IMG/VR virus record: IMGVR_UViG_3300037882_001702
Span: 1 to 41,811 of that record
DNA: 41,811 nt
Reading direction: 5' to 3' (one strand)
DNA from: a virus
Lineage: Duplodnaviria; Caudoviricetes
The stretch's first letter is position 1; each line of letters begins with the position of its first letter. Of this stretch, positions 4,283 through 40,994 are shown piece by piece. The notes beneath the pieces were generated by a model. The model saw nothing but the letters and a program-made list of their open reading frames with translations. It was not told where the DNA came from and ran no database searches. A program made the position numbers and the translations under genes.

Positions 4283-4527
4283 TGCAAAAAAATAGAGATA
4301 AATGTATAACAATCGGTTGTAAAAATTCTGGCGGATCAAAAGGTAAAAATATCAGAAGCTTTAAGCCGCTATGCAGCTCATGTTCTATTATGTATTCAAG
4401 GGCAATAAAAGAAGGAGAAGACAAAAATTCAATAAAGCTATGGACACGACAAGAATTTGAAGACAAATATTGGAACAGGAGAGAAAAAGCACAACTGCAT
4501 AACGCCGCGTTAATTTTAAACACTTAA
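4282..4527 (+). CDS. Hypothetical zinc-finger-like protein
   Basis: CITIGC...CSSC; TAATG overlap. Confidence 0.55.
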   Translation: MQKNRDKCITIGCKNSGGSKGKNIRSFKPLCSSCSIMYSRAIKEGEDKNSIKLWTRQEFEDKYWNRREKAQLHNAALILNT

Positions 4528-4564
4528 TTTTAATAAATAAATTCGCTAACTTAGTTAAATTGTA

Positions 4565-4954
4565 ATGACAAACGAAATATCAACTCAACAAATTTGCTCC
4601 ATGCTAAGAATGCACGGGAGCCAACTATCGAAAATAATCAATAACGCTCACAATAATTTTCCGACTTGTGTAAGAGTTGGTGGCGTGACCGGAACTTCAA
4701 AAATATATGACAAAAAAGAAGTAGAGGACTGGGTTTTAGGGTATAAAGAAAAGAAAGCTAAAAAGAAACCAATAAAGACTTTGATAAATAGCTTTATCCG
4801 CGGAAATTATGCGCCTAGCGCAACGAAAGAAAAATATAGCGCTCTTGCTATTACCGCAAGGCAAAACCAGCCTAAAACGCAAAAAATACACATTGAAGCT
4901 TGCTATGATAAAATTCAGTGGAGTGAGCGCTATTTAGATTGGGGTGGTAACTGA
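4565..4954 (+). CDS. AlpA/excisionase-like HTH protein
   Basis: ISTQQICSML...NFP...YDKKEVEDW pattern. Confidence 0.6.
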   Translation: MTNEISTQQICSMLRMHGSQLSKIINNAHNNFPTCVRVGGVTGTSKIYDKKEVEDWVLGYKEKKAKKKPIKTLINSFIRGNYAPSATKEKYSALAITARQNQPKTQKIHIEACYDKIQWSERYLDWGGN

Positions 4955-5088
4955 TGAAAAACCTTATAATAGCAATGCTTGAAATAATACAAATAGCCGC
5001 CGCAATGGCAGTAATATCGGTTGTGCTGTTTGCTATTTTGCAAGCATCTTCACCGCCAGCTCCAACACAATCATTTATCGATGATTAA
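4954..5088 (+). CDS. Small membrane protein, 44 aa; absent from the ORF track
   Basis: TGATG overlap; hydrophobic IAAAMAVISVVLFAIL. Confidence 0.55.
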   Translation: MKNLIIAMLEIIQIAAAMAVISVVLFAILQASSPPAPTQSFIDD

Positions 5089-5091
5089 AAT

Positions 5092-5120
5092 TTGACAATT
5101 ATTTGAATCATAACTAATAT
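5092..5120 (+). promoter_or_regulatory. Sigma70-like promoter upstream of the Mor/C gene
   Basis: TTGACA, 17 bp, TAATAT. Confidence 0.55.
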
Positions 5121-5152
5121 TAAATCTGTGAAATTTAAAATTAAGATCATAA

Positions 5153-5545
5153 ATGACTGATTTTGCTATTTTTGAATTACCTGATCACTTAATACCCGAG
5201 ACTATTTTAGAAATAGCGAGCTATTGTGGAAAAAATACCGCCATTGTACTTCTCAAAAACTACCCAGGCTCTCACATAAGAGTGCCAAAGTACCCAACAA
5301 GCGACCATAAATTGGCCGCTTTACTTGGGATTATTGACTTCACACGTCTATGTGAAAAGTTTGGCAAAGAAACAATACAAATCCCCAGAGCCGCAGATGC
5401 GATCAGAGCGGTCCGTAATCAAAAAATATTACACGACTTTAAAATGGGCGTGATGCAATCAGATTTAGCGATAAAATATGAGCTAACAGAACGGCAAATA
5501 ATTCATATTTGTAACAAAAATAAGATTGATAGCTATGATGAATAA
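5153..5545 (+). CDS. Mor/C-family late transcription activator
   Basis: FGKETIQIPR...RNQKI..DF...LAIKYELTERQI, as in Mu Mor/C. Confidence 0.85.
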   Translation: MTDFAIFELPDHLIPETILEIASYCGKNTAIVLLKNYPGSHIRVPKYPTSDHKLAALLGIIDFTRLCEKFGKETIQIPRAADAIRAVRNQKILHDFKMGVMQSDLAIKYELTERQIIHICNKNKIDSYDE

Positions 5546-6077
5546 AAAAATCTCTCCGAAAGGCTTGGAGTTAATAAAATACCACGAGCAATTACGCCTT
5601 CGGGTTTATTTATGCCCGGCTAACAAACTCACTATCGGCTATGGTCATGTCCTACTTTTAACTGATTATGTCATGTTTAAAAACATGGATAGTATTACGC
5701 TTAACAGATTAATTACTGACTGTCAGCGGCTTAAAAAAGTTACAAAAGAGGCAGAAGAACTTTTGGTTATTAGCACAATACAAGCCGATGCACTACTCAA
5801 CGGCGATACCCGTCAAATCGTAAATCACCTTAACTCAACTATCAACGTCGATATAAACCAAAACCAATTTGATGCCTTATGCAGTCTCGTTTTTAACATC
5901 GGACGGGCTGGCTTTTCACTATCAACGCTACGCAAGAATTTAAACAACGGTGATTTTATCGCCGCCGCCGCAGAGTTTGATCGGTGGGTTTATGCCACTG
6001 TCAACAGCAAAAAACAGAAATTAAACGGTCTAGTAACCAGACGGGCGGCTGAGCGCAAATTATTTGAGGCATTATGA
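5535..6077 (+). CDS. Endolysin, GH24 lysozyme
   Basis: E-x8-C-x5-T (HEQLRLRVYLCPANKLTIGYGH), NQNQFDALCSLVFNIG, LNGLVTRRAAERKLF. Confidence 0.92.
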   Translation: MMNKKISPKGLELIKYHEQLRLRVYLCPANKLTIGYGHVLLLTDYVMFKNMDSITLNRLITDCQRLKKVTKEAEELLVISTIQADALLNGDTRQIVNHLNSTINVDINQNQFDALCSLVFNIGRAGFSLSTLRKNLNNGDFIAAAAEFDRWVYATVNSKKQKLNGLVTRRAAERKLFEAL

Positions 6078-6319
6078 ATAAAAATAAAGAACTTAAAAAG
6101 CGCATAAGTCAGTTAAACACTGCTGTTTATATACTCACTGAAGAACTTGCGATAAAACACTACATCAAAGGCATGACGAGCTTCATTGACGATGACATCG
6201 AGAAACTTGAGATGATTATCAACGATTTTAAAGAAAGAGCAAATGAATATATTTTTAATTTGATGTTGCATAGCTCTCATCGCTCTTTCATGAGATACTT
6301 AAAAGAAATGGATGACTAA
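6074..6319 (+). CDS. Hypothetical protein
   Basis: Translationally coupled on both sides. Confidence 0.55.
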   Translation: MNKNKELKKRISQLNTAVYILTEELAIKHYIKGMTSFIDDDIEKLEMIINDFKERANEYIFNLMLHSSHRSFMRYLKEMDD

Positions 6320-6627
6320 TGCCAGAAAGTCAACGGCTGCCCGAAATCATGATAAGATTGTCACGACTTGAAAATGATGTTGGTAAGTTCGACGATAAAT
6401 TTATCGATCTAGTTAGTTCGGTTAATTCAGTCTCATTAATCGTGCATGAACTTGAGACCCGGATTGACACCGGCATTAAGACAATCCTCATAGGCTTTGG
6501 TATTATCACTACTTTGTCGGGGGCGTTCTGGACGTATCAGAATAAAATGGAAGACAACCATTCAAAACTCATGCAAGAACCCATGCAACAAGTTTACAAA
6601 AACACAGAAAAACTAAGAGAAAATTAA
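6319..6627 (+). CDS. Coiled-coil plus single-TM protein, lysis-module accessory
   Basis: Heptad region followed by ILIGFGIITTLSGAFW. Confidence 0.6.
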   Translation: MPESQRLPEIMIRLSRLENDVGKFDDKFIDLVSSVNSVSLIVHELETRIDTGIKTILIGFGIITTLSGAFWTYQNKMEDNHSKLMQEPMQQVYKNTEKLREN

Positions 6628-6628
6628 A

Positions 6629-6982
6629 ATGAAAAAAATACTCGCAGCACTAGCGTTATCAATTTTTAGTATAGCGGCTAACGCATCACCATTTATCGTG
6701 TCCGACCCGTCCATCCAGGATGTGAGTCATTGCGGCGTTTATATGGATGGCAACCCGGTGGTAGAGGTTGCTGTTGATATTGTGGCAGCAGGAGCGCGGT
6801 GTAAGTTTGATGTAGGAAGCGTTACGCCGGGGGAGCACACAGTAACCGCAACTTTTATCAAAAATGATGCCGCTTGGGGGCGATTGGAGAGTGCATCCAG
6901 TGTCCCTTTTGTTTTCGTGCGACCCACGTCAGGCGGCGCCAGTTTAATCAACGCTCCTGCCGGGATCAAACTCGAGAGATAA
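6629..6982 (+). CDS. Secreted beta-rich (Ig/FN3-like) protein
   Basis: Sec signal MKKILAALALSIFSIAANA; two Cys; GEHTVTA...ES..S.PF pattern. Confidence 0.65.
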   Translation: MKKILAALALSIFSIAANASPFIVSDPSIQDVSHCGVYMDGNPVVEVAVDIVAAGARCKFDVGSVTPGEHTVTATFIKNDAAWGRLESASSVPFVFVRPTSGGASLINAPAGIKLER

Positions 6983-7028
6983 TTTGGGGAAGATGGATTT
7001 ATGAACGCAATTAAAATAGGAACAGATA

Positions 7029-7445
7029 ATGGCTTTTGACCCTTTTACCGCCGGGTTTGACCTGGTTAAAACCGCACTCGATAAAATATTCCCTGATGCC
7101 GATGCTGAATTGAAAGGCAAGCTTGATCAGGCCGCAGCAGTTATCGATCATGAGTTCCAATTGACGCTCGGTCAGCTCAAAATCAATGAAACTGAAGCTG
7201 GCAGCCAAAGCTTTTTTGTCGCTGGGGCAAGACCGGCTATCATGTGGATAGGGGCGGCGACGCTGGGCTATTCTGGCATAGGCATATCACTGTTCTCGTG
7301 GATAGGGGCGTTTTTTGGCGCGCCACCACTACCCATTGTTGACCCAACAGCTGTAAACAATATTTTAATGGGCTTATTAGGTCTTGGCGGCATGAGAACC
7401 GTTGAGAAGTTGAAAGGCGTAGCTACAACAAAAATAGGAAAATAA
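7029..7445 (+). CDS. Holin, GTA 3TM-type
   Basis: EAGSQSFFVAGARPAIMW...LLGLGGMRTVEKLKGV. Confidence 0.8.
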   Translation: MAFDPFTAGFDLVKTALDKIFPDADAELKGKLDQAAAVIDHEFQLTLGQLKINETEAGSQSFFVAGARPAIMWIGAATLGYSGIGISLFSWIGAFFGAPPLPIVDPTAVNNILMGLLGLGGMRTVEKLKGVATTKIGK

Positions 7446-7509
7446 AATGAAAGCAAAAACAAATATCAAAGCCGGTCGTAAACCTAACAAGATTTATCCG
7501 TAAATCCGT

Positions 7510-7992
7510 ATGCAGATTGTTCAGCGCAAAGTTTCAGAGCTTATACCCTACGTTAATAATGCGCGGACGCATAGCGAAACGCAAGTTACTCAAATAGCAG
7601 CATCAATAAAAGAATTTGGTTTTACTAATCCAATTCTAATCGATGGAGACAACGGGGTTATTGCCGGTCATGGGCGCTTAATGGCGGCTAAAAAGCTTGG
7701 CATGGAGCAAGTGCCTACGATTGAACTATCGAACCTTACGCCCACGCAAAAGAAAGCCTATATTCTGGCGGACAACAAACTTGCTTTGAATGCGGGATGG
7801 GACGAAGAACTGCTCAAGCTGGAACTGATCGAGCTTAAAGACGCTGATTTTGATTTGAGCTTGATTGGGTTTGATGATTTTGAATTAAATGATGATGCTG
7901 TTTTTCTACCAGGTAGTGAAGATGAACAGGGAAATCTTGATATTATTGCGCCTATAATTTGCCCGGCTTGCGGTCATGAGTTCCACAAATAA
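7510..7992 (+). CDS. ParB/Srx-like N-terminal domain protein with C-terminal CPxCG knuckle
   Basis: LIPYVNNARTH...SIKEFGFTNPILID...IAGHGRL...ADNKL; CPACGHEF. Confidence 0.88.
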   Translation: MQIVQRKVSELIPYVNNARTHSETQVTQIAASIKEFGFTNPILIDGDNGVIAGHGRLMAAKKLGMEQVPTIELSNLTPTQKKAYILADNKLALNAGWDEELLKLELIELKDADFDLSLIGFDDFELNDDAVFLPGSEDEQGNLDIIAPIICPACGHEFHK

Positions 7993-8734
7993 GCCAGTAT
8001 TAAAAATAGACTGGGCAACACACCAAGCGGCAAATTATGCGGTTAAAAATTGGCATTATTCTAATGTTTTACCTGTCCCCCCATTAGTTAAAATAGGCGT
8101 ATGGGAAAATGAAATATTTATTGGAGTTGTTATATTTAGCAGGGGAGCCACTCAAAACTTATTAAAGCCATTTGGATTATTGCAAACAGAAGGTTGTGAG
8201 TTAACCAGGGTTGCTCTTACAACGCATAAAACACCCGTTTCTAGGATTATTAAATTAGCGATAATGTTTCTAATAAAAAAAAGTCCCAGCTTAAGATTAA
8301 TAGTTTCATTTGCAGACCCGTCACAAAATCATTACGGCGGAATATATCAAGCGGGTAACTGGATATATTCAGGACAATCAAATAAATCAAATGTTTATTT
8401 GGCTCCAGATGGTAAAGAATGGCATAGTAGAATGATCTCCTCATCAGGAATGACAAAAGTACAAGGAATTTATAGAAAAGTATGGAAGCCAAACGAATGT
8501 ATTGCAATAGAAAAACCAGGAAAACATCGTTATCTTATGCCTTTAGATGATGACATGAAAAAACAGATTTTAAAATTATCAAAAGATTATCCAAAGCGTA
8601 CAAAAAATCAGGCGCTTGAGTACCCCTCAAGTCTGGGCGGTGAGATTCCGACCTGTGCGCTCCAACTTTCCAAAGAGTTTTTCGGACACATAAAAGGAAA
8701 TATCGCATGTCACGCGGCGGAAGACCAAGATTAG
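7976..8734 (+). CDS. mom: Mom-family (GNAT-like) DNA adenine modification protein
   Basis: WHYS...IGVVIF...CELTRVAL...LIVSFADPSQNHYGGIYQAGNWIYSG...KHRY...YPK motifs of Mu Mom homologues. Confidence 0.82.
   Translation: MSSTNKPVLKIDWATHQAANYAVKNWHYSNVLPVPPLVKIGVWENEIFIGVVIFSRGATQNLLKPFGLLQTEGCELTRVALTTHKTPVSRIIKLAIMFLIKKSPSLRLIVSFADPSQNHYGGIYQAGNWIYSGQSNKSNVYLAPDGKEWHSRMISSSGMTKVQGIYRKVWKPNECIAIEKPGKHRYLMPLDDDMKKQILKLSKDYPKRTKNQALEYPSSLGGEIPTCALQLSKEFFGHIKGNIACHAAEDQD
8596..8664 (+). ncRNA. D-armless tRNA-Gly-like element inside the mom 3' extension
   Basis: 7-bp acceptor stem GCGTACA/TGTGCGC plus T-CCA; anticodon arm with T-ACC; T-arm GGCGG-TGAGATT-CCG(A)CC. Confidence 0.72.
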
Positions 8735-9057
8735 AGCCAACCGATGATGAGCGGAAAATGGTCGAGTCAATGAGCGGCTATGGGGTTCCATTCTCGCATA
8801 TTGCAGCGCTTATTCGGGGCGGCATTGACGAGGAAACACTAAACAAGCACTTTAAAAAAGAGCTTGTGCAAGGCAAGGCGAAAGCTAATTCAAAAGTAGG
8901 TCAAACCCTATTTCAAAAAGCTACCGGCGGCGATACGTCAGCAATGATTTGGTGGTCTAAAACACAAATGGGGTGGAAGGAGACCAGCATTACCGAGCAT
9001 CACGGCAAAGATGGCGAGTCATTAAATCCGGTCAATATCATAGTCAATGGCGTTTGA
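8707..9057 (+). CDS. Terminase small subunit
   Basis: GGRP...HFKKEL..GKAKAN...LFQKA..GD..AMIWW.K...W; directly upstream of TerL. Confidence 0.8.
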   Translation: MSRGGRPRLEPTDDERKMVESMSGYGVPFSHIAALIRGGIDEETLNKHFKKELVQGKAKANSKVGQTLFQKATGGDTSAMIWWSKTQMGWKETSITEHHGKDGESLNPVNIIVNGV

Positions 9058-10291
9058 TGCCGCAACGATCGATATACCAAAAAAGCTTATTCCTGTATTT
9101 ACTCCGCAAAGGGGGCAAGTAAGGTACAGAGCCGCATACGGCGGGCGCGGATCAGGCAAAAGTTTTAATTTTGCGCTGATGGCTGCGGTCATGGGCTACA
9201 AAGAGCCGCTAAGAATATTATGCACACGCGACCTTCAAAGTTCAATCCGCGAGTCATTTCACGAAGAAGTAAAAAGCGCTATAATGTCAATTGCCTGGCT
9301 TAATGCTAATTATGATGTCGGAGAGTCTTACATCACCGGGAAAAATGGCACTGAATTTATCTTTAAAGGCTTACGGCACAATATCAGCGCAATAAAGTCG
9401 ATGGCACAAATAGACATATGTATTGTAGAAGAAGCCGAGGACGTGCCTGAGTTTAGCTGGCGTGACTTAATCCCAACAATCCGCGCACCAAAGTCAGAAA
9501 TCTGGGTGATGTGGAACCCCCGCACAGATAGAAGCCCGGTAGACACCCGCTTTAGAAAGCATATCGATAACGATATGGTCGTTACAGCATGCCAATTCAC
9601 AGATAACCCATTTTTCCCTGAAGTTTTAGAAAAAGAGCGCCAGCGCGATCAACGAAATTATGATCCGGCTGTTTATGCGCATATTTGGGAAGGCGAATAT
9701 CTTACAATTAGCGATGCACAAGTGCTTAATGGCAAGATAAAAATAGCAGAGTTTGAGCCAGAAATGTATTGGTCAGGGCCTTATTTTGGCGCTGATTGGG
9801 GCTTTAGTACAGACCCTACAACACTGGTAAAACTTTGGATACATGATAATATCTTGTACTTAGAATATGAGGCGTATGGAGTAGGCGTTGAGATCGATCA
9901 CACCCCCGATATGTTTATGCGCGTTCCTGGAGCAAAAGAGCATATAATAAGAGCCGATAATGCACGCCCTGAAACTATTAGCTATATGCGCAGGAAAGGG
10001 TTTAATATTCGTGGAGCTGTTAAAGGAAAAGGCAGCGTCGAAGATGGCGTCATGCACTTGCGTGGATATGACAAGATCGTTATCCATCCACGATGTAGCC
10101 ACGCAATAAGTGAAAGCCGGTTATGGTCATATAAGCAAGACCGGCTAAGCGGCGATGTCCTGCCTGTTCTAATTGACGCTAATAACCATATTTGGGACGC
10201 TGCCAGGTATGCTTTAGAGCCGATAATGCACAGCGGAAGTGCAAAACATAATATAATTACACCACAGCCAACAATTTCAAGCGCCTGGTAA
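9047..10291 (+). CDS. Terminase large subunit, PBSX family
   Basis: YGGRGSGKS, IVEEA, GADWGFSTDP, NNHIWDAARYA. Confidence 0.95.
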   Translation: MAFDAATIDIPKKLIPVFTPQRGQVRYRAAYGGRGSGKSFNFALMAAVMGYKEPLRILCTRDLQSSIRESFHEEVKSAIMSIAWLNANYDVGESYITGKNGTEFIFKGLRHNISAIKSMAQIDICIVEEAEDVPEFSWRDLIPTIRAPKSEIWVMWNPRTDRSPVDTRFRKHIDNDMVVTACQFTDNPFFPEVLEKERQRDQRNYDPAVYAHIWEGEYLTISDAQVLNGKIKIAEFEPEMYWSGPYFGADWGFSTDPTTLVKLWIHDNILYLEYEAYGVGVEIDHTPDMFMRVPGAKEHIIRADNARPETISYMRRKGFNIRGAVKGKGSVEDGVMHLRGYDKIVIHPRCSHAISESRLWSYKQDRLSGDVLPVLIDANNHIWDAARYALEPIMHSGSAKHNIITPQPTISSAW

Positions 10292-36481: not shown

Positions 36482-36787
36482 TTATTTAAGAATTTTTATT
36501 GCGTTTTGTTTTGCTTGCCATTCAATCGCAGAATTAACAATCTGATTAAATGGAGTGTGCCTGTTTTCAAATTTGCAATTTAAGTACGCTTTAACCATAT
36601 CGTAAAGTAGATCGGATGCCTCGCCTTCTGAAAATTCATCACTTTTAAAATAATCTAAAAGTGCAACGAAGCAGTCGGCAGGCTCGTTTCTTAGTAATCC
36701 TTCTTGGAAGTCTGCTTCATAGTCCAACTTTTCGGCTTCTTGAGACTGGTATTCATCTTGATATGGCTCATCTATGTATGCGCTCAT
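36482..36787 (-). CDS. Hypothetical acidic protein
   Basis: 101-aa ORF in the early arm. Confidence 0.6.
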   Translation of the reverse strand: MSAYIDEPYQDEYQSQEAEKLDYEADFQEGLLRNEPADCFVALLDYFKSDEFSEGEASDLLYDMVKAYLNCKFENRHTPFNQIVNSAIEWQAKQNAIKILK

Positions 36788-37265: not shown

Positions 37266-37448
37266 CTACTCATTTTTATTTTCCTCTTTCATAGCAATCC
37301 ATTTTTTTTGCGTCGTCCATGCAATTTCGAGCGCATCTTTTTCAACTTCGCCTTTCCATTCGTCCAGCGGGTGTCTCATTGCATTCCTGGCTGCAATGAG
37401 CGCCGCAGAAAATTCCTCACACATTTTTATCAGTTATTTATTTTCCAT
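37266..37448 (-). pseudogene. Small gene with a stop at codon 5, or restarted at ATG 37424
   Basis: GGGGAG SD, then MENK*LIKMCEEF... all in one frame. Confidence 0.45.
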
Positions 37449-37489
37449 TTTTCTCCCCTATTTTATCGATACTTGGTGTCTAATTAGCG

Positions 37490-37711
37490 TTATACGCCTA
37501 ATTTCTCAACAGTAATTCTGTACTCTGGCGTTCCGTCTGCCTTGCTTATTTCCACCGGCTTCCCAAATCTAAGCGTGTGCTCTGCAACAGCAACCAGGGC
37601 ATCAATGGTCACATCCTGCTTACCTGCGCCCCATGTCCTGCCGTCCTTAAGCACAGTTCCGGCAAAAATGTCTCCAGTCAAAGGACTGGCTGCAACGTGT
37701 AGTTTACGCAT
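37490..37711 (-). CDS. Cassette 1 hypothetical phage protein
   Basis: SPLTGDIFAG...KQDVT; start codon lies in the attC R'' box, stop codon in GTTA. Confidence 0.75.
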   Translation of the reverse strand: MRKLHVAASPLTGDIFAGTVLKDGRTWGAGKQDVTIDALVAVAEHTLRFGKPVEISKADGTPEYRITVEKLGV

Positions 37712-37806
37712 AACTTATAGCTCCAGGCGACGCAGTGCCGCGTCACGGTTTTTGTTAAATTTAGATTCAGTCGCGCGGCACTGCGCTCCTGAGCATGGCG
37801 TTAGCC
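37708..37806 (+). other. attC site 1, 99 bp
   Basis: GCATAAC-ttata-GCTCCAGG ... CCTGAGC-atggc-GTTAGCC; one extra base in L''. Confidence 0.85.
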
Positions 37807-37837
37807 ACCACCAGCACGCGCTAGTGGTGTGCCGACA

Positions 37838-38134
37838 TTACGCCGCCAGTCGTTCGCGCAGCGCGTAGCCTTCCAGCGCCCAAATCTTCTGCTTGGCGTT
37901 GTCGCGTGCGATCTTGCGTCCCAACTCGGTGTCAAAGTTCTCAGGGCTTGCGCACGCGCTTTCCCCGGTAACGGTGAAGCCGTTTGCCAGCGTCAGGACA
38001 CAAACCGTCAGGGTCGTGCCGGGGAAAACGTGGTAGTCCTCGCCAACAATCACTTCGTCAACCCGTTGCGGCGTCACCCGTGCTGCGGTCAACCCCTTGT
38101 CCTTAATTTCCTGCTCAATTGCTTGGTCGTTCAT
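37838..38134 (-). CDS. Cassette 2: N4 gp49/Sf6 gp66-family protein
   Basis: LTVCVLTLANGFTVTGESACASPENFD.ELGRKIA...KIWALEGY. Confidence 0.85.
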   Translation of the reverse strand: MNDQAIEQEIKDKGLTAARVTPQRVDEVIVGEDYHVFPGTTLTVCVLTLANGFTVTGESACASPENFDTELGRKIARDNAKQKIWALEGYALRERLAA

Positions 38135-38173
38135 CTTGGTTCCTTTTGGTGTGCCGCGTTTTCAGCGTGTCGC

Positions 38174-38236
38174 GGCTAACACGTCATTCCAGCGGACGGG
38201 CGAAAAGCCGCCCGCCCCTGGATTCAGGCATTATGC
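38174..38236 (+). other. attC site 2, 63 bp, degenerate
   Basis: GGCTAAC-acgtc-ATTCCAGC ... CCTGGAT-tcaggc-ATTATGC; crossover GTT is ATT. Confidence 0.7.
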
Positions 38237-38460
38237 CCTAAAGCATCCCGCGCGGCCTTCAAAGCCTTCGGCCATCCGTAATCTTTAGCGTTCCCATTCC
38301 CTGATAGTTCTGTTTCCTTAAGCAGTAGCGTTAGTGCATCCTCCAGTTTTTTCGCGTAGGCAATTATTCCTGTTGCCGTCCATCCTCCATCAAGCACATC
38401 TTCCGACAATCCGGCACACGCTTTAATACATTTATCTTTATATTCGTCGCTTTGGTTCAT
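38224..38460 (-). CDS. Cassette 3 hypothetical protein
   Basis: GGAG SD; ends inside attC2. Confidence 0.7.
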   Translation of the reverse strand: MNQSDEYKDKCIKACAGLSEDVLDGGWTATGIIAYAKKLEDALTLLLKETELSGNGNAKDYGWPKALKAARDALGHNA

Positions 38461-38486
38461 TGTTTTTTCTCCAGCAAATAGTTGTG

Positions 38487-38583
38487 GTATAACTCTTAGT
38501 TAAAGCGGACAAGCCGCCGTTTAGCGCATTTGCGCGGTTAAAGCACAGCGTGTGGCGGCTTTCCGCTTAACACGGCGTTATAC
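38487..38583 (+). other. attC site 3, 97 bp
   Basis: GTATAAC-tctta-GTTAAAGC ... GCTTAAC-acggc-GTTATAC. Confidence 0.85.
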
Positions 38584-38820
38584 GCCAAGTTTACCGAGTT
38601 CATAGCATTTTTTTAATGCATCTACTATCCAGTTTAATTCACGTCCAAAACTGGCATCTTCTGGTTCCATTGCATCGGATTCAAGCGAAATAACTGCTCC
38701 GTTGTGGATAACTTTTATGTAATTTGCACAATCTTTACCGTCGCCATTGTTAGGAACTGATTCTTTTTCATCATCCGATAAATCATCAAAACCAATTAAA
38801 TCAACTTTAAAATCATTCAT
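38578..38820 (-). CDS. Cassette 4 hypothetical acidic protein
   Basis: GGAG SD; SDAMEPEDASFGR; stop is the TTA of R'. Confidence 0.75.
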   Translation of the reverse strand: MNDFKVDLIGFDDLSDDEKESVPNNGDGKDCANYIKVIHNGAVISLESDAMEPEDASFGRELNWIVDALKKCYELGKLGV

Positions 38821-38833
38821 ATTTTAATCTCCA

Positions 38834-38929
38834 GTATAACTATGTGTTCAAGCGGACAAGCCGCCGTTAGCGCATTTGCGCGGTTAAAGTTCAGTGGTTG
38901 GCGGCTTTCCGCTTAACACGGCGTTATCC
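38834..38929 (+). other. attC site 4, 96 bp, paralogous to attC3
   Basis: GTATAAC-tatgt-GTTCAAGC ... GCTTAAC-acggc-GTTATCC. Confidence 0.88.
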
Positions 38930-39112
38930 CGCATTGTTTAGCGTCTTAACTATCCACTCAGTGAGTTTTAAGTTTTGTGCTTGTGCGGTCGCTATCCATG
39001 TTGCTTTATTCGCGGCAGTACATCTAGCATGTATAAAACTTGTAGCGGCTTCCATGTCGCGCTGGGCATTGGTGTTGCCAAGCTTTGCTCCTGGCTTTAT
39101 TTTTTCAGACAT
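38924..39112 (-). CDS. Cassette 5: small ribbon-helix-helix-like protein
   Basis: IHARCT...KATW...AQ....KLTEWIVKTLN. Confidence 0.6.
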   Translation of the reverse strand: MSEKIKPGAKLGNTNAQRDMEAATSFIHARCTAANKATWIATAQAQNLKLTEWIVKTLNNAG

Positions 39113-39299
39113 GTGATTTTAATTTCTGCAATTGTAAATCAGACAATTCTATTTCCCCGCTTTCGTTTCGAAATGGAATATCTCCCACCGACGAATCAAA
39201 ACCTGAAATTATTTGATATTCGCCGGTCGATCTGTTGTAAACAAGTTTTTCCCCGGCCTCTTTAGCGATTTTTCGAATATATTTGATAGTTAGTTTCAT
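39105..39299 (-). CDS. Cassette 5 hypothetical protein
   Basis: Packed operon. Confidence 0.6.
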   Translation of the reverse strand: MKLTIKYIRKIAKEAGEKLVYNRSTGEYQIISGFDSSVGDIPFRNESGEIELSDLQLQKLKSHV

Positions 39300-39301
39300 A
39301 A

Positions 39302-39574
39302 TTAAATTCTCGCTGCTTTAAATCCGATTTCATTAATTGTATTCTTCATTGCGCCGTCTTCAACAAAAAACAGTTCTTTTTTTACGTCAAAATACATTTT
39401 TGATTTACTGCCGATTCCACGAGTTTCCCCGGAATATTTTGGAGAATTTACAACCTTTGCGCCAATGGCTTCCAGTTGAGTATTGCTGTTCATGTAGATG
39501 CGCTCATGTTCATCTTTTATCCAAACTTTTGCGCTAGCATCGATAAGTGCTTTCTTGATTTCTTGTGTGGTCAT
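39302..39574 (-). CDS. Cassette 5 hypothetical protein
   Basis: GGAG SD; KVW.K..HERIY.N...KMYFDV. Confidence 0.7.
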   Translation of the reverse strand: MTTQEIKKALIDASAKVWIKDEHERIYMNSNTQLEAIGAKVVNSPKYSGETRGIGSKSKMYFDVKKELFFVEDGAMKNTINEIGFKAARI

Positions 39575-39636
39575 GATGTCTCTCCAGATTAGGTTCCCGG
39601 TTCCTCCGGGTAGGTCACTTTCTTAAAAGTTGGCTT

Positions 39637-39665
39637 ATTATTCCATGGTTTTAATTGTTTGTCAA
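39637..39665 (-). promoter_or_regulatory. Sigma70-like promoter inside cassette 5
   Basis: TTGACA, 17 bp, AATAAT. Confidence 0.65.
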
Positions 39666-39679
39666 CACAAATGATTTAA

Positions 39680-39739
39680 GTATAACTACACGCTCAAGCC
39701 GACTTCGCTATCGCTACGCGGCTTAGCTCTGCGTTATAC
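39680..39739 (+). other. attC site 5, 60 bp, classic short type
   Basis: GTATAAC-tacac-GCTCAAGC-CGAC...GCG-GCTTAGC-tctgc-GTTATAC. Confidence 0.9.
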
Positions 39740-39777: not shown

Positions 39778-40200
39778 CTAAAATGGGATGTCATCATCAA
39801 AATCATCATGCCCAGTCTCAGCCTTAGCAGGGGGTTTATACCGTTCTTTTTGTTGTTCTTCAGCCTGAGACTTATTCGACTCGCAAAACTGAAAGTCATT
39901 AACGATCACTTCAGTGATGTATTGCTTTACACCTTCTTTATCCCATGACCGCGTTTTAAGCTTCCCTGAGAGATAAATTTTACTGCCCTTTTTGAAGTAT
40001 TTTCCTATGTTTTCTGCGGTATTGCCGAACGCGACACAGCGAACCCACTCGGTATTTTCTTTAACTTCGCCTGTCGTTTTATCTTTCCATTTTTCGCCAA
40101 GAGCTACCGAAAATTTCCCGACCGCCCGACCATCCGGCAAAGTTTTTATTTCTACGTCTGATCCCAGGTTCCCTAAGATTTGTACTAGATTTAATGACAT
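39778..40200 (-). CDS. ssb: Single-stranded DNA-binding protein
   Basis: LNLVQILGNLGSD...TEWVRC...KGSKIYLSGKLKTRSW...DFDDDIPF. Confidence 0.96.
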   Translation of the reverse strand: MSLNLVQILGNLGSDVEIKTLPDGRAVGKFSVALGEKWKDKTTGEVKENTEWVRCVAFGNTAENIGKYFKKGSKIYLSGKLKTRSWDKEGVKQYITEVIVNDFQFCESNKSQAEEQQKERYKPPAKAETGHDDFDDDIPF

Positions 40201-40202
40201 TT

Positions 40203-40994
40203 TTACTCCTCCGTTTGTGTTATTTCGCCGGTTGTTTGATCAACTTCTGGCACTACTTTAGCTTGTGCGGATGCTTTTAACGTGTCAATTTTACGTTTGT
40301 ATGCGGTTATCGCAATTTTGCGATCACTTTCAAGTGTCAATTCAGTTATCAGAGCCTTACAGTTATTTTGCGCCTCTTTGCTATCAATTGCTTCGATAGC
40401 ATCAAGGACATCATCAATCGACTGGGAGTCTTCGTGGATTTGACACACCGTTTTTTCTAGCGGCGTGTCTTGCAGTTCATCGACGCTATAAACCCCCAAG
40501 ATCGCCCCAGGCGCATAGAGCCGCGCCCAGTATTTTACGGCTAGATATGAGAGCTGTTGTGCCGGTGCTGTTTTCCAAAGTGGTGAGTTTTTTGTGGTGA
40601 TGCTGGCAGCGTGTAACCATTCTCCCCAAGTTATCTCGCTTTGCCCGTTTAGCACCGCACCGACCCGGCATGACACGGTTTGCCCTTCGCCCTTGTGTTC
40701 GTAGTGGAAGCTTCCGCGAATTGCATTTGACGATTGAATCACTGCATTAACGAGTTGTGCTTCATAGCCCAATATGCCGTTGACCAAATGCGTTTTTTGC
40801 GCGGCGGCGAAAGGGTTTATGCCCCATTGTGCGGCTTGCATGATAATAGCCAGGCAGTCTGACGGTTTGCCACGCAAGTGAGCGGGCACAGTCACTGTGC
40901 CTTGCGCCATAACGTCGGCTAACATCATCATTTTATCGATTTTGTTGCCCTCGAACAGCATTGACGCTGTTGATGTTGTTTGTAATTCGTTCAT
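40203..40994 (-). CDS. recT: RecT-family single-strand annealing recombinase
   Basis: VPAHLRGKPSDCLAI.MQAAQWG.NPF.AAQKTH...YLAVKYWARLY.P..ILGVY..DEL. Confidence 0.85.
   Translation of the reverse strand: MNELQTTSTASMLFEGNKIDKMMMLADVMAQGTVTVPAHLRGKPSDCLAIIMQAAQWGINPFAAAQKTHLVNGILGYEAQLVNAVIQSSNAIRGSFHYEHKGEGQTVSCRVGAVLNGQSEITWGEWLHAASITTKNSPLWKTAPAQQLSYLAVKYWARLYAPGAILGVYSVDELQDTPLEKTVCQIHEDSQSIDDVLDAIEAIDSKEAQNNCKALITELTLESDRKIAITAYKRKIDTLKASAQAKVVPEVDQTTGEITQTEE

Follow-up and report, generated by a model that had tools for sequence, protein, structure and literature searches.

An attC cassette array with every gene inverted in a phage genome record

The virus record IMGVR_UViG_3300037882_001702 (IMG/VR; Duplodnaviria, Caudoviricetes) is linear and about 75% complete according to CheckV; the window that we analyzed is the whole 41.8-kb record (41,811 nucleotides). 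PHROG and Pfam scans identified genes for terminase, portal, capsid, tail proteins, lysozyme, Mor, and Mom on the + strand. The early arm, with RecT and SSB genes, lies on the − strand. Directly downstream of the SSB gene is an array of five sites with the architecture of integron attC sites, headed at its left end by an attI-like site (Table 1). A reading made from the sequence alone, without database searches, had drawn attention to this array, and we located its five attC sites at the positions given there. As the sequence-only reading had also noted, all seven open reading frames (ORFs) of the array are on the − strand, opposite to the attC top strand and in the same direction as the RecT/SSB early arm. 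The ORFs to the left of position 37489 are small and unrelated, and no intI adjoins the attI-like site as in a complete integron. With at least two attC sites within a few kilobases and no integron integrase nearby, the array is a cluster of attC sites lacking integron-integrases (CALIN).

All five sites had been described as having attC architecture, with ATT for GTT in site 2. We looked for this architecture (R'', spacer, L''/L' pairing, and GTT) with a strict rule-based scan. Sites were also scored with a covariance model built from 14 bacterial-type attC sites (Shewanella, Vibrio, and class 1; none with a 6-nucleotide spacer) and with a position weight matrix (PWM) built from 23 bacterial-type attC sites, which were chosen with our own scanner from known integron arrays. 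The description holds for sites 1, 3, 4, and 5: each has an AAC-ending R'', a 5-nucleotide spacer, a GTT, cores that fit RYYYAAC/GTTRRRY, and an 8-nucleotide L'' that pairs at 7 of 7 positions with the 7-nucleotide L' after removal of its extrahelical fourth base. It fails for site 2, which has an ATT core, a 6-nucleotide spacer, and, by inspection, L pairing at 5 of 7 positions; the cassette 3 ORF runs into this site at its end. The strict scan returned 4 sites in the region, which is also the number in the whole window, all with the top strand on +; no such site turned up in 300 dinucleotide shuffles of the region. The covariance model, a check suggested in the sequence-only reading, placed sites 4, 3, 1, and 5 as the top 4 of 21 matches, all on the + strand at 25 to 37 bits, with the next match at 18.2 bits; site 2 scored only 8.3 bits. 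PWM scores on the + and − strands were 23.6/3.9, 32.4/4.1, 37.4/9.5, 45.2/1.1, and 35.8/6.3 for sites 1 to 5, respectively. Maxima in 20 shuffled windows ranged from 15.6 to 25.8, and site 1 alone was exceeded, in 3 of the 20. Folds of the bottom-strand DNA of the sites had energies of −12 to −25 kcal/mol.

The site homologous to attC2 has a GTT in three other loci (L034, L037, and L161; L, G, and C numbers are our labels for loci, genomes, and contigs). attC2 is likely inactive in this phage, and since it is probably dead, cassettes 2 and 3 would now travel together. attC3 and attC4 are 92% alike over 61 nucleotides, and relatives of attC3 (89 to 94%) are present in other phage arrays (L012, L014, L015, and L241). 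The starts of cassettes 1 to 5 are complementary to their own R'' at 6, 7, 5, 7, and 6 of 7 positions. Cassette ends had been said to match perfectly for cassettes 2 and 4 and to differ by about one base elsewhere; this is correct for cassettes 2 and 4 and for cassettes 1 and 5, which are off by one, but cassette 3 is off by two.

In a typical cassette the ORF is co-oriented with the attC top strand; here, 7 of 7 ORFs are on the bottom strand. We confirmed the bacterial norm with the same scanner: in arrays of Shewanella, Vibrio, and class 1 integrons, it places attC sites on the strand of the genes, and hence the inversion seen here is real. Of the seven − strand ORFs, six are supported by family matches or homologs. 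In 3 of the 5 cassettes, the complement of the core TTA serves as the stop codon. In cassette 1, the stop codon TAA lies inside the core of the attI-like site, the ATG lies in R'' of attC1, and a GGAG lies in L'' of attC1. Of 113 phage sites, 42 have a bottom-strand ORF that ends in the R' core, compared with 4 of 55 bacterial-type sites; a top-strand ORF ends in R'' at 21 of these phage sites and 19 of these bacterial-type sites.

Comparison with other phages, likewise suggested in the sequence-only reading, showed that cassettes 1 and 2 are bounded at G/TT elsewhere and move as units. Cassette 1, with attC1 included, recurs in L114 with 91.5% identity over 317 nucleotides (37487-37803), and the shared segment ends at G/TT on both sides. 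Both neighbors differ; on the left there is the bare attI-like core here and an unrelated attC in L114, so that homologous recombination would have nothing to act on. Homologs of cassette 2 are found in L034, L037/L038, and L044 from G/TTAGCC onward (ATTAGCC in L037). The local alignment of cassette 2 with L161 begins at the crossover G, position 37800, and extends at 75% over 410 columns. In L161 this homolog occupies the first cassette position at attI, next to an IntI that scores 472.6 bits with TIGR02249 (cut-off, 265). Two sibling phages (L389 and L396) have flanks that are 91 to 97% alike and the same solo attI, and their cassettes differ from G/TTATGCG onward. Identical or homologous cassettes sit between unrelated neighbors in other phages. 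These comparisons indicate that the mobile unit consists of the hairpin upstream of the start codon, the gene, and the core at the stop codon.

The same junctions bear on whether the array is a relic, a product of IntI in an ancestor whose intI was later lost, and now subject only to decay and to RecT-type homologous exchange between similar hairpins. Such a relic has the same origin as the reading that we favor and differs from it only in present activity. It is suggested by the absence of a recombinase from the record, the missing GTT of attC2, the lack at the attI-like site of the upstream TTATACACC repeat that is present in intI-linked copies, the adjacent RecT and SSB genes, the likeness of attC3 and attC4, and an attC-like remnant elsewhere in the record (4497-4529). 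However, four of the five sites are intact, the junctions of cassette 1 lack flanking homology at 91.5% identity of the cassette itself, and the siblings differ exactly at the solo attI. Moreover, TIGR02249 was absent from all 5 solo-attI records scanned, one of them 92% complete, which indicates that solo arrays are common. We consider the relic unlikely.

We scored the attI-like site with a PWM learned only from 28 distinct sites located 5' of intI in viral contigs (consensus, TGTCGTCGAATTTAAG/TT). Position 37489 ranks second among 1,509 GTT positions under this PWM. A second search used a pattern drawn from the window and L012, GGTGYCTAATTNNNGTTA. Among 106 evaluable metagenome loci (of 117), 17 have a same-strand attC after the pattern, as do 10 of 47 viral loci (of 49, among which are the contigs of L012 and L014 and one pair of duplicates); an attC upstream of the pattern was seen in none of the 106 and none of the 47. 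No intI motif was found within 1.5 kb at the viral attI-core loci, and their 30 ORFs gave 3 PHROG matches, all inverted. In three loci (L245, L277, and L288), an intI start lies left of the attI core, and the genes that follow look canonical. Two of these loci argue against a different, Xer-like recombinase that reads the sites in the other polarity, from whose view the genes would not be inverted. The L-R spacing of the attI-like site, one base shorter than in the Shewanella attI of PMC9892861, could be taken to suggest such an enzyme. Nevertheless, the traveling unit ends at the top-strand G/TT, as IntI chemistry predicts; a cassette 2 homolog and a related attI motif adjoin enzymes that pass TIGR02249; and in L277 and L288, canonical arrays next to an intI start have this attI core at their head. 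An Xer-like enzyme therefore seems very improbable. Four bacterial-looking contigs (L285, L316, L248, and L314) have the same attI core and canonical cassettes, with no intI within 2.5 kb, and by their sequence solo attI platforms appear to exist in bacteria too. To the left of the attI-like site of the window (37266-37448), an ATG at 37448 preceded by a ribosome-binding site has an in-frame stop at codon 5 and is followed by a 52-amino-acid ORF; this is possibly an eroded gene at the place where intI sits in complete phage integrons.

The sequence-only reading had judged that at least two of the array genes look like phage genes. The cassette 2 protein matches PF13876 with 117 bits against a cut-off of 27, and it matches PDB 9e4w (E value, 8e-5), as expected for Acb4, a sponge that counters the cyclic oligonucleotide-based antiphage signaling system (CBASS). 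All eight Acb4 homologs assayed bound 3'3'-cGAMP (bioRxiv 10.1101/2024.12.30.630793). Because of these matches and of the binding by the homologs, an anti-CBASS function is likely for the cassette 2 protein. It differs from SPO1 Acb4 in its low identity, in being cassette-borne, and in being a predicted binder. Homologs of gp49 have a nearby attC call in only 5 of 80 viral loci (L062 was added from another scan), and a cultured phage collection yielded only gp49-gene matches among the best 40 of 164. DUF7446 homologs, such as the cassette 1 gene, are mostly in ordinary phage operons and also in cassettes. The judgment of phage-type cargo is thus supported, and since both families occur outside as well as inside cassettes, the cargo appears to have been recruited from ordinary phage genes.

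Such cargo is not what we would expect if a block of a host chromosomal integron had been captured by the phage, with its cassettes reversed by chance. Capture of host integron segments does occur (in Vibrio and Shewanella phages; PMC9892861), and the attI core is common to bacterial-type arrays. Captured bacterial arrays are canonical, however; 75 of the 80 viral gp49 loci have no adjacent attC call; and the attC3-family pattern was found in only 1 contig of the GTDB genome scan, which itself has phage-like genes and inverted cassettes. Host capture strikes us as scarcely credible. A contig from a Bacteroidota-labeled bin (L015, G003 contig C31) carries two inverted arrays of the attC family of the window together with phage-like genes and may be a mis-binned phage.

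Viral contigs were searched with an IntI alignment, and 80 of 545 loci were kept. All 10 viral IntI proteins scanned pass the TIGR02249 integron-integrase cut-off. Arrays at the viral intI loci are located 5' of this gene and, like those of bacteria, have their attC sites directed away from it. Gene orientation was assessed by PHROG support; longest-ORF calling is unreliable in GC-rich loci. Of 149 candidate ORFs from 30 loci (167 were collected), 77 are on the intI strand and 72 on the attC top strand, and among these 149 the PHROG matches were 27 inverted (14 loci) and 1 canonical. The cargo of these arrays includes methylases and PAPS-reductase-like, Lar-like, and Mom-like genes. One record, G013, is a complete terminal-repeat genome that encodes terminase, portal, capsid, tape measure, and a true IntI and has inverted cassettes. 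Terminase checks with phrog_2 and PF03237 missed most records, and direct PHROG scans confirmed G013 and G008 as phages. A quick tree of IntI proteins placed 12 of 13 inverted-labeled rows in one 36-row clade (SH-aLRT, 99); only four reference IntI proteins are in the tree, and a phage-specific clade is therefore not established. In Virus Rctr41k (L152; KX853513), a true IntI (383 bits with TIGR02249) is followed by same-strand phage genes and attC-like sites (4680-9800); this virus does not appear in those phage tables of PMC9892861 that we consulted.

We conclude, with a probability of about 0.8, that the locus is an array of five attC-bounded phage cassettes, headed by an attI-like site and with genes on the bottom strand, likely assembled and exchanged by IntI acting in trans. 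The array is an integrase-less member of an inverted phage integron system; recombination in this phage is inferred from sequence rather than observed. The chemistry would be standard, with bottom-strand attC recombining with attI at G/TT, and only the gene would be reversed within the cassette. The folded bottom strand is a roughly thousandfold better substrate for IntI than the top strand, and this preference fixes the orientation of a cassette at attI (PMC8946536). The probable reason for the reversal is that transcription enters from the distal RecT-SSB early operon and proceeds toward attI, continuing through intI in arrays that have it; the genes would then not depend on a Pc promoter, and incoming cassettes would dock at the promoter-distal end. 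In a host integron, phage cassettes would lie antisense to Pc, just as those of the host would be antisense in this array, a mutual polarity that would keep the host and phage cassette pools apart. The sequence-only reading had the phage using the IntI of its host to shuffle cassettes. The sharing of cassettes at G/TT agrees with shuffling, but the host is only one possible source of IntI: phages encode it as well, and since the same cassette pool occurs in phages with a true IntI of their own, the enzyme need not be that of the host. Candidate sources are the host, a co-infecting or resident phage with IntI, and the unsequenced quarter of the genome. We suggest more tentatively, at slightly less than even odds, that phages run an integron economy of their own, in which a clade of true IntI and solo attI platforms circulate phage-only reversed cassettes (anti-CBASS genes, anti-restriction methylases, and Lar-like genes) that are silent in host integrons by polarity, and in which ordinary phage genes are repeatedly converted to cassettes.

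Several observations weigh against the interpretation of the locus as an IntI-served array. No tyrosine recombinase (no PF00589 match) and no serine recombinase or resolvase was found in the record, about three-quarters of which is present. One position inside the tape-measure gene scores higher than 37489 under the attI PWM, and the putative attI rests on a short motif. Cassettes 3 to 5 were not found in any of the loci that we retrieved, and of the 31 segments shared in an all-against-all comparison, a crude flag marked only 8 as having a core close to both ends. Relatives with which to compare gain and loss at this very locus are lacking: no close relative was found with RecT (43 to 60% identity), with the left-flank regulator, or in a DNA search of five records. 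Three sequencing runs gave matches with small shares (0.09 to 0.19), and their assembled contigs contained short identical pieces and short diverged attC pieces; these sparse contigs, none of which spans the array, held no excision circles or junctions and are uninformative on circles. PHROG favors phage genes, and canonical arrays are consequently undercounted. Lastly, inversion is not universal in phages, as the phage TJE1 has a canonical array and that of Rctr41k is canonical by eye.

The array shares with canonical integrons (PMC8946536) its attC anatomy, the G/TT crossover, the complementarity of cassette ends, and, if the attI-like site is an attI, its location at the top-strand 5' end, and related phage arrays share a true IntI with them. 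It differs from them in that bottom-strand genes read toward the attI-like site, no Pc would be needed, and no intI is adjacent; the stop codon is often in R' rather than R'', and the gene is preceded by its own attC. Qi et al. (2023; PMC9892861) described 17 CALINs in phages, as well as IntI1-mediated recombination of five sites; attC bottom strands of PH101 recombine with attI1 and attCaadA7 via IntI1. In the CALINs of virulent phages in that study (TJE1, PH101, P12002L, and MW202573), as here, attC sites lie between small phage genes and intI is absent. We found that PH101 (4 sites on +, annotated genes on −) and MW202573 (3 sites on −, genes on +) are inverted like the present array, unlike the canonical CALIN of TJE1. 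The portions of the text of PMC9892861 that we consulted call the PH101 structure typical and are silent on inversion, solo attI, sharing of cassettes between phages, and phage IntI with inverted arrays. The sequence-only reading knew of no systematically inverted array with phage cargo. Our literature search, which covered few subscription journals, found no description of one, but PH101 and MW202573 are inverted, which passes unremarked in the consulted text of PMC9892861, and the figures or Dryad file of that paper may show it. The novelty is therefore slightly below what had been claimed. Group IIC-attC introns (PMC7923331) resemble these cassettes in carrying coding elements opposite to normal cassettes at attC and in a proposed role in cassette formation; in contrast, the ORFs scanned here include no intron or reverse transcriptase, and the array has putatively excisable gene cassettes instead.

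Integrons are viewed as bacterial devices and, lately, as stores of anti-phage systems. If our reading is correct, a mirror-image phage version with a predicted counter-defense gene would mean that both parties to the arms race have this recombination system, and would provide a site-specific route to phage mosaicism. To our knowledge, how integron cassettes are made remains open. The occurrence of the same gene families as plain operon genes and as cassettes bears on cassette creation, and if phages do run their own integron economy, they are a place where it can be watched. mRNA of the array carries the attC bottom strand, so that reverse transcription would yield the top strand, which recombines poorly; this polarity would be a testable constraint on RNA-templated models of cassette formation. 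Another possibility is that cassettes arise when a bare attC inserts at a TAAC stop codon, which is disfavored by the match of cassette starts with their own R'' (5 to 7 of 7 positions); given this match, the core arguably came with the attC.

Table 1. Features of the array and of the adjoining early operon
Feature	Position	Strand	Remarks
attI-like docking site	37475-37495	+	GGTGTCTAATTAGC G/TTATAC; crossover after 37489; no adjoining intI
Cassette 1 gene, 73 aa, DUF7446	37490-37711	−	PF24233 above cut-off; same cassette in L114
attC1	37708-37806	+	Covariance model, 26.7 bits; crossover G 37800; nearly identical in L114 up to G/TTA
Cassette 2 gene, 98 aa, PF13876 (Acb4 anti-CBASS sponge family)	37838-38134	−	Pfam
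attC2	38174-38236	+	PWM, 32.4; covariance model, 8.3 bits (E value, 8.8); decayed
Cassette 3 gene, 78 aa	38224-38460	−	phrog_11884, E value 1.5e-6; 3 homologs, 77-79%
attC3	38487-38583	+	Covariance model, 27.7 bits; crossover G 38577
Cassette 4 gene, 80 aa, uncharacterized conserved family	38578-38820	−	27 homologs; ESDAMEPED motif; stop in attC3 R' core
attC4	38834-38929	+	Covariance model, 37.3 bits; crossover G 38923; attC3 family
Cassette 5 gene, 62 aa	38924-39112	−	13 homologs, DUF1778-labeled; stop in attC4 R' core
Cassette 5 gene, 64 aa	39105-39299	−	ORF list
Cassette 5 gene, 90 aa	39302-39574	−	11 matches in homolog search
Sigma-70-type promoter match in cassette 5	39637-39665	−	TTGACA-17-AATAAT, 11/12; consensus match only
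attC5	39680-39739	+	Covariance model, 25.3 bits; crossover G 39733; right array end
SSB	39778-40200	−	PF00436; early operon, upstream of array and reading into it
RecT	40203-40994	−	PF03837; early operon, upstream of array and reading into it

PADLOC matched none of the 7 cargo proteins. For the cassette 4 protein, the predicted structure (pLDDT, 79) had no fold match at an E value of 0.001 or below in PDB or BFVD. The signature NxG..DAMEPED..R.L.W is invariant across 25 aligned members of its family, which is a candidate new anti-defense or ligand-binding family. Cassette 5 (38924-39665) is a three-gene module with its own promoter match that ends in a DUF1778-like small regulator, and small regulators like it are present in cassettes of L031 and L190; the module could be an autoregulated or toxin-antitoxin-like unit. 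ESM Atlas gave no usable match for its 90-amino-acid ORF, and the 64-amino-acid ORF had no family match and was not included in the homolog searches.

PWM matches at 36532 and 23523 were rejected as attC sites; both are weak in the covariance model and lie inside ORFs. Rfam gave no match in the window at gathering score, and plasmid searches with attC5 and attC2 gave chance-level matches only. The attC-like remnant at 4497-4529 (R' and L' half; top strand −) follows a + strand reading frame, scores 13.7 bits with the covariance model, and is possibly an eroded inverted site at a second locus. At the start of the record (1-310) are 15-nucleotide tandem repeats, probably marking an assembly break, which we take to be − strand coding sequence of a pentapeptide-repeat protein. 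In seven other loci (L012, L015, L025, L026, L030, L141, and L377), many cassette ORFs begin inside the attC loop (RAPVERxV and GSxLNVEL), and other cassette ORFs read through the next site as PNAELTG; such attC-derived peptides could be a protein-level footprint able to reveal eroded arrays. In L013 (3802-4525), an integrase-like ORF and a tRNA-like sequence flank inverted attC cassettes, which are thus near a probable prophage attachment end.

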